Assembly: GCF_013122565.1 (NCBI RefSeq) | Contig: NZ_CP053258.1 | Direction: 5' to 3' (one strand) | From: Escherichia coli | GTDB lineage: Bacteria; Pseudomonadota; Gammaproteobacteria; Enterobacterales; Enterobacteriaceae | DNA: 64,000 bases | Shown here: in pieces, positions 62,914 to 63,073 of the stretch | How positions within the stretch are numbered: position 1 is the stretch's first letter | Layout of the letters: each line of letters begins with the position of its first letter | Made by a program: the position numbers and the translations under genes | The notes under the pieces: generated by a model | What the model saw: the letters and a program-made list of their open reading frames with translations, nothing else | What the model was told of the DNA's origin: nothing | Database searches by the model: none

Positions 62914-63073
62914 GGGTTATTCCTTATCTATCTAATAACGTTGAGTTTTCTGGAACCTGTCCCATTGAACTCTCGCCGGAAAGCTCAATAAGACAGGTTC
63001 TACGTTTAGTTGCCGCGCTTTTATATGCGCTTGATTTACAACATCTTCTGGATAATTTTTACCAGAAAAATCA

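Follow-up and report, generated by a model that had tools for sequence, protein, structure and literature searches.

Introduction

The spacer between pdhR and aceE in Escherichia coli contains a short inverted repeat, and the question raised by this locus is whether that repeat acts in DNA or in RNA and, if in RNA, on which strand. An earlier inspection of the sequence (the original prediction) had proposed either a structure in the operon transcript or a protein-binding dyad, in a place where an internal aceE promoter was expected. The analysis described here favours the transcript: the repeat is the base of a 22-bp stem-loop in the pdhR-aceEF-lpd mRNA, and this stem-loop is very probably an RNase III processing site.

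Gene context of the pdhR-aceE spacer

Coordinates refer to the window, i.e., the whole 64-kb stretch of DNA that was analysed, unless they are given for E. coli K-12. The two cistrons (located by open reading frame and K-12 mapping) and the ribosome-binding site of aceE are as follows.

63074..63838, minus strand: pdhR coding sequence, the upstream cistron
60250..62913, minus strand: aceE coding sequence, the downstream cistron
62921..62925, minus strand: aceE Shine-Dalgarno AAGGA, inside a conserved AGAUAAGGAAUA block

This is the gene context that had been predicted, and the sequence is identical to that of E. coli K-12. The spacer is 160 nt long, and the minus strand is the sense strand of pdhR-aceEF-lpd. 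In K-12 MG1655, pdhR occupies 122092..122856 and aceE starts at 123017, so that a K-12 coordinate equals 185930 minus the window coordinate; RefSeq NC_000913.3 annotates no RNA gene in the pdhR-aceE spacer. A 231-nt query spanning the spacer was found in 5423 of 5426 complete E. coli genomes, once in each, with at least 99% identity in 5414 of the 5423 and 100% identity in most. Given this uniformity, polymorphism within the species is uninformative for covariation.

Two neighbouring elements can be separated from the repeat. Upstream of pdhR, at 63870..63886, there is a perfect palindrome, AATTGGTCTTACCAATT, which is unrelated to the hairpin and matches the known PdhR operator (consensus ATTGGT-N3-ACCAAT). 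The 3' part of the aceE leader (62914..62950, minus strand; CAGAnAAAUCAACG..UUAG..ACAGAUAAGGAAUAC) is highly conserved well past the Shine-Dalgarno sequence. Mutations in the aceE 5' UTR that arose during adaptive evolution of delta-pdhR strains are located in the Shine-Dalgarno sequence, outside the hairpin (PMC8489512).

From inverted repeat to mRNA hairpin

The 9-mer GAACCTGTC occurs twice in the window, at 62953..62961 on the plus strand and at 62992..63000 on the minus strand, the right-hand copy reading GACAGGTTC on the plus strand. The predicted inverted repeat thus exists, but it had been placed at 62946..62954 and 62989..62997, which misses the true positions by 7 and 3 nt, and the distance between the 9-mers is 30 nt when counted, not the claimed 34 nt or so. 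A 9-bp perfect inverted repeat is by itself only marginally unusual for a 160-nt spacer: perfect repeats of at least 9 bp were present in 3.9% of 2000 dinucleotide shuffles. The description as a long-range repeat with a spacer understated the feature, however. The region between the 9-mers is also self-complementary, and a repeat search returned two arms of 22 nt, 62953..62974 and 62979..63000, with 82% complementarity and 4 nt between them; the feature as a whole is an unbroken stem of 22 bp closed by a loop of 4 nt. Its parts are listed below.

62953..63000, minus strand: RNA hairpin of 48 nt with a 22-bp stem and a CGGC loop (from the fold, covariation and Gordon et al., 2017; PMC5371410)
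62992..63000, minus strand: 5' base of the stem, GAACCUGUC in the mRNA; the right-hand 9-mer, left on the pdhR fragment after cleavage
62953..62961, minus strand: 3' base of the stem, GACAGGUUC in the mRNA; the left-hand 9-mer, with which the processed aceEF-lpd mRNA begins
62975..62978, minus strand: apical tetraloop, CGGC in the mRNA; varies in length and takes up ERIC-like insertions in other species

The hairpin occupies positions -87 to -40 relative to the aceE ATG, 39 nt upstream of the start codon. The four mismatches in the DNA arms are C/A on the plus strand and hence G·U on the minus strand, where the stem runs through 22 pairs without interruption, 18 of them Watson-Crick and 4 G·U. 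The 48-nt minus-strand sequence folds with -32.7 kcal/mol (z -9.84), the structure accounts for 94% of the ensemble, and none of 200 shuffles folded as well. On the plus strand the same 48 nt reach -20.4 kcal/mol with four internal C·A mismatches, 12 kcal/mol worse. When the spacer was shuffled 2000 times with dinucleotides preserved, the longest helix had at most 17 pairs. The fold of the whole spacer has a z of -5.9, and the hairpin is present in both its minimum free energy (MFE) and its centroid structure. The stem provides the near-continuous double-stranded RNA of at least around 20 bp (about two helical turns) that characterises RNase III substrates, and it is perfect only on the pdhR-aceE sense strand, that is, on the transcribed strand.

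Two other candidate structures were rejected. The spacer MFE also contains a pairing (11 of 12 positions) between 62942..62953, the 12 nt just past the hairpin, and 63062..63073, the 12 nt that directly follow the pdhR stop codon, which would close the entire spacer as one domain. It reached p<=0.05 against shuffles in only 1 of 87 species and is probably due to chance, given that it is unconserved in other species. A search for riboswitches or other curated RNAs in Rfam returned tp2, which is discussed below, and one chance snoRNA match (E 0.77); a riboswitch was rejected because a simple helix whose apex varies freely offers no ligand pocket.

Conservation and covariation across Enterobacterales

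Loci for comparison were anchored on the conserved AceE N-terminus, not on the hairpin, with one genome per species. This gave 120 Enterobacterales loci, and the 103 with a pdhR-like open reading frame upstream form the spacer set. A motif search identified the hairpin with its conserved base (GRRCCURUCU.../...AGAYAGGYUC) in 94 of these 103 pdhR-aceE spacers; three more species have intact arms with large loop insertions, which brings the count to about 97 of 103. Wherever the hairpin is intact, 30-42 nt separate its end from the aceE ATG. The genera concerned are Escherichia, Citrobacter, Enterobacter, Klebsiella, Serratia, Yersinia, Pectobacterium, Dickeya, Hafnia, Edwardsiella, Proteus, Providencia, Morganella, Photorhabdus, Xenorhabdus, Erwinia and most Pantoea. 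Between families the upper stem is wholly different in sequence and length, with its pairing kept.

The hairpin is shortened or lost in Rosenbergiella (L015, L024), Tatumella (L049, L070), some Pantoea (L016, L063, L097, L099), Arsenophonus (L008, L057) and a Sodalis-like symbiont. In the loci named by number the spacers measure about 100-165 nt, and the hairpin has been cut down to some 8 bp (GAGCCUG...CAGGCUC), has been replaced or is degenerate. The Rosenbergiella, Tatumella, Pantoea and Arsenophonus variants could serve as natural comparators.

Covariation was assessed in an ungapped alignment of the arms only, taking 21 nt from each end in 66 distinct sequences. The complementarity, on whose conservation the original prediction had been staked beforehand, proved to be strongly conserved: standard pairs fill 94.5% of the cells, and 15 of the 21 pairs show compensatory changes, i.e., changes on both sides. 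When the partner strand was slid by 1-3 columns, pairing fell to 38-51%. The observed pairing and covariation were reached by 0 of 500 shuffles, a statistic that overstates independence since the aligned sequences are phylogenetically related, and the register was set from the conserved ends, so that these numbers lean toward structure. Despite kinship and fixed register, the covariation signal is still large, and the pairing has been kept in evolution as in a functional helix.

The same alignment indicates which strand is under selection. On the sense strand, G·U occupies 158 cells and A·C 23, with recurrent G·U in seven columns and recurrent A·C in two. Paired cells amount to 94.5% for the sense strand and 84.8% for the antisense strand, and the sense fold is the more stable one in 85 of 94 species. 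The excess of G·U over A·C implies that selection acts on the mRNA strand.

Conservation of the primary sequence is uneven. Stem pairs 1-9 are nearly invariant except for the covarying pairs 2, 3 and 7, and across the order both pairs 4-9 (CCUGUC/GACAGG) and a box upstream of the hairpin are nearly invariant in sequence.

63009..63016, minus strand: GCGGCAAC box, 9-16 nt upstream of the hairpin; at least 90% conserved among 74 distinct sequences; contains C-99

The conservation of pairs 4-9 exceeds the needs of pairing and is not accounted for by cleavage alone.

Insertions into the apical loop were also observed. Pseudescherichia vulneris, Klebsiella oxytoca and Buttiauxella noackiae have a palindromic element of about 125 nt there, at the positions given below by locus.

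L023:3300-3500, L089:8340-8540 and L110:4280-4480: inserts of about 125 nt in pdhR-aceE spacers

As the arms of the hairpin stay intact, the element merely extends the stem. Its core is AATCCCCAGGAGC...GACTGGGGTGAG, which is also found elsewhere in two Photorhabdus loci, and the element is presumably ERIC-like. In locus L044 the insert at this position is a different one, about 80 nt long.

RNase III cleavage of the hairpin

Cleavage by RNase III, an endonuclease specific for double strands, was described by Gordon, Cameron & Pfleger (2017, mBio 8:e00128-17; PMC5371410). In their Table S1, pdhR-aceE is the top novel RNase III site, entered as 'Intergenic (pdhR-aceE), 122961', where the rnc mutant gave 13,954 reads against 2 and 9 for the wild type. 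In the same study, purified RNase III cleaved a T7 transcript of the pdhR-aceE region in vitro, and the primers given indicate that the template yielded the sense strand, from the 3' end of pdhR into aceE. The cut was mapped by 5' RACE, and its product is described as identical to the aceE transcription start site (TSS) of Olvera et al. (2009), who had placed the aceE 5' end at a G located 48 nt before the ATG, with AACCTGTCTTATTGAGCTTTCCGGCGAGAGTTCAATGGG listed as the upstream sequence (PMC2759082). The two positions map as follows.

62961, minus strand: G at -48 from the aceE ATG, the aceEp 'TSS' and the 5' end that the RNase III cut in the 3' arm leaves (PMC2759082, PMC5371410)
62969, minus strand: K-12 122961, in the upper 3' arm; the RNA-seq coordinate in Table S1 of Gordon et al. 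(2017) (PMC5371410)

From the stated identity of the RACE product and the mapped TSS we infer that the cut is at -48. Counted on the sequence, this G is the innermost base of the left-hand 9-mer (K-12 122969). With the 5' end at 62961, the two 9-mers that had first attracted attention are the lower third of the 22-bp stem, exactly the part below the cut. The coordinate in the table, 122961, differs from 122969 by 8 nt and would be a position inside the excised hairpin top. The cut on the 3' arm is documented by Gordon et al. (2017), and we infer a second one on the 5' arm.

Loss of RNase III has a modest effect on aceEF, and rnc mutants are pleiotropic. According to Gordon et al. (2017), the half-life of aceEF mRNA is about 3 min in the wild type and about 5 min in the rnc mutant, in which pyruvate dehydrogenase (PDH) activity is higher (PMC5371410); the AceE protein is raised in rnc14 (PMC9731577). 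According to its main text, Altuvia (2018) re-detected 9 of 10 of the Gordon targets, and aceE is not named there. No chromosomal mutant of the hairpin is reported in the RNase III and pdhR-aceE literature consulted on this locus, and a CRISPRi paper on the aceE and pdhR promoters contains nothing on the hairpin.

Taken together, these data suggest the following sequence of events. RNase III cuts the sense hairpin and generates the 5' end at -48, as Gordon et al. (2017) describe, and a second cut on the 5' arm, staggered by 2 nt so as to leave the 2-nt 3' overhangs typical of RNase III, would excise the top of the hairpin, about 28 nt. In the published data, cleavage destabilises aceEF mRNA, and AceE and PDH are higher without RNase III. 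Cleavage would also split pdhR from the aceEF-lpd message, so that repressor and enzyme levels could be set separately, and strip the upstream GlnZ site from the aceE mRNA. The start assigned to the aceE promoter, and possibly the Tp2 sRNA signal, would then be at least partly by-products of processing.

Promoter, operator, terminator and antisense RNA

One alternative is that the feature acts as DNA, as an internal aceE promoter (aceEp) or an operator dyad. The -48 end was obtained by S1 mapping and 5' RACE and read as a sigma70/sigma38 promoter (PMC2759082), and Gordon et al. (2017) noted promoter-like elements inside the hairpin and did not dismiss a promoter (PMC5371410). The link to an internal promoter that had been predicted proves apt in an unforeseen manner, in that this TSS coincides with the RNase III cut in the hairpin. 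The Olvera score is low (sigma70 1.90; PMC2759082). A sigma70 promoter would show -35 and -10 hexamers 16-18 bp apart upstream of the mapped start and shared among relatives; a consensus scan of 62700..64000 returned no sigma70-like site, although the scan missed the established pdhR promoter too. The aceEp annotation (RegulonDB-type; Spencer & Guest, 1985; Olvera et al., 2009) shares the -48 coordinate with the RNase III end, but it needs conserved -35 and -10 elements, and the segment that should hold them is instead the fast-evolving, covarying upper stem, which ranges from 43 to 94 nt and takes up insertions of about 125 nt in three species with its pairing kept. Such variation in length and sequence is incompatible with fixed hexamer spacing or a dyad of fixed spacing. 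The protein-binding dyad of the original prediction is unsupported: depending on the species, the conserved arms are anywhere between 43 and more than 200 nt apart, the interior shows covariation in place of conservation, only one of the two strands turns the mismatches into G·U pairs, and the PdhR operator lies outside the hairpin, at the palindrome upstream of pdhR. Action at the DNA level is thus unlikely. It is very improbable that the hairpin restrains transcription from pdhR into aceE as an intrinsic terminator or attenuator. Such a role would fit earlier suggestions of a possible terminator at the pdhR end, cited by Olvera et al., and their finding that aceEF is up-regulated more weakly than pdhR (PMC2759082). 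An intrinsic terminator has a G+C-rich stem followed by a U tract, however, and here the stem is followed by CCAGAAAAC, without a U run; homologous hairpins are followed by CCAGAUAA or CCAAACAA and never by a U tract, a terminator scan found none in the spacer, and the main aceEF message is the full-length operon transcript, read-through being known (cited in PMC2759082). Two further readings, an inverted repeat due to chance and a dispersed element of the REP, BIME or ERIC type, are already refuted and have a negligible probability. The frequency of 9-bp repeats in shuffled spacers would allow for chance, but none of the shuffles reached a 22-bp helix, and the conservation of the hairpin, with covariation, extends across an order. 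Dispersed repeats have multiple copies per genome; this sequence occupies a single place in each of the 5423 E. coli genomes, and its 9-mer is confined to the hairpin site in the window.

The remaining alternative is an independent antisense sRNA, Tp2, transcribed from the plus strand, with a function in trans or in antisense regulation of pdhR-aceE. The tp2 candidate reportedly originated in the comparative sRNA screen of Rivas et al. in 2001, and the corresponding Rfam family matches the locus.

62916..63029, plus strand: match to Rfam RF02030 'tp2', antisense to the operon, with the hairpin as the core of the model

The match covers the full model (1-114) with 103.4 bits (E 4.6e-20), above the gathering score of 50, while the minus strand scores 29.5 bits. 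Above the same threshold, RF02030 was found in 14 of 18 additional genera or loci, antisense to aceE in all 14, and several papers include Tp2 among the sRNAs that they list and measure. The asymmetry in score reflects only the orientation of the Rfam seed, however. The plus-strand stem has the four C·A mismatches and the less stable fold described above, the prevalence of G·U over A·C in the 66 distinct sequences points to the opposite strand, and the scan of the spacer region returned no promoter-like or terminator-like site on the plus strand. The delta-tp2 phenotype was ascribed to a polar effect on aceEF, and Tp2 supplied in trans did not complement it (PMC9426594); strand-aware RNA-seq reports low counts and no regulation, RefSeq NC_000913.3 has no RNA gene at the site, and the other papers that mention tp2 do not give its strand. 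Nothing structural supports antisense transcription, and the Tp2 reading is quite unlikely. The RF02030 family may be inverted, as the pattern of substitutions suggests. The processed sense hairpin accounts for the structure in the operon transcript that had been predicted, which covariation and the literature both support.

Comparison with known RNase III sites and the GlnZ target

The site of Gordon et al. (2017) is the same hairpin at the same locus; this is identity and not analogy, with no difference in E. coli. RF02030 covers the same region with the hairpin as its core and differs in strand, the Rfam model being antisense and the selection and cleavage data sense. Among other RNase III hairpins, those of rnc, pnp, metY-nusA-infB, the sdhB-sucA spacer and ahpC-ahpF are likewise long, near-perfect stems in 5' UTRs or spacers. 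Cleavage at metY-nusA P2 mimics an internal promoter, and such cleavage also alters the stability of the downstream message. The direction of this effect varies: cleavage at pdhR-aceE destabilises the downstream aceEF, whereas cleavage at ahpC and pflB stabilises.

The small RNA GlnZ pairs at C-99 of aceE, as validated in E. coli (PMC9731577). This residue is at 63012 in the window, 12 nt upstream of the stem and thus of the cut, so that full processing removes the GlnZ site from the aceE mRNA; in sucA, by contrast, the GlnZ site is located downstream of the cuts (PMC9731577). Regulation of aceE by GlnZ is reportedly species-specific, and the order-wide conservation of the GCGGCAAC box suggests another role for that box.

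Implications

The hairpin is real, functional and strongly conserved, but it has already been described as an RNase III site and is represented in Rfam. Having been published in 2017 and extended in 2022 by the GlnZ work, it offers no new biology. What is new is the conservation across the order with covariation, the strand test and the recognition of the 9-mers as the part of the stem below the cut. The value of these results is curatorial and modest, and they add doubt about the internal aceE promoter. In view of the covariation across Enterobacterales and of selection on the mRNA strand, the Rfam tp2 entry and the aceEp annotation merit re-examination. A broader reading is plausible but tentative: the Tp2 sRNA and aceEp would both be misreadings of one conserved, RNase III-processed sense hairpin, RF02030 would be on the wrong strand, the -48 end would arise purely from processing across Enterobacterales, and CCUGUC/GACAGG together with the GCGGCAAC box would be determinants of the PdhR:PDH ratio. 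The pyruvate dehydrogenase operon stands at the main branch point of central carbon metabolism, and the hairpin would provide it with a post-transcriptional uncoupling of the pdhR repressor cistron from the enzyme cistrons and would tune the lifetime of aceEF mRNA.
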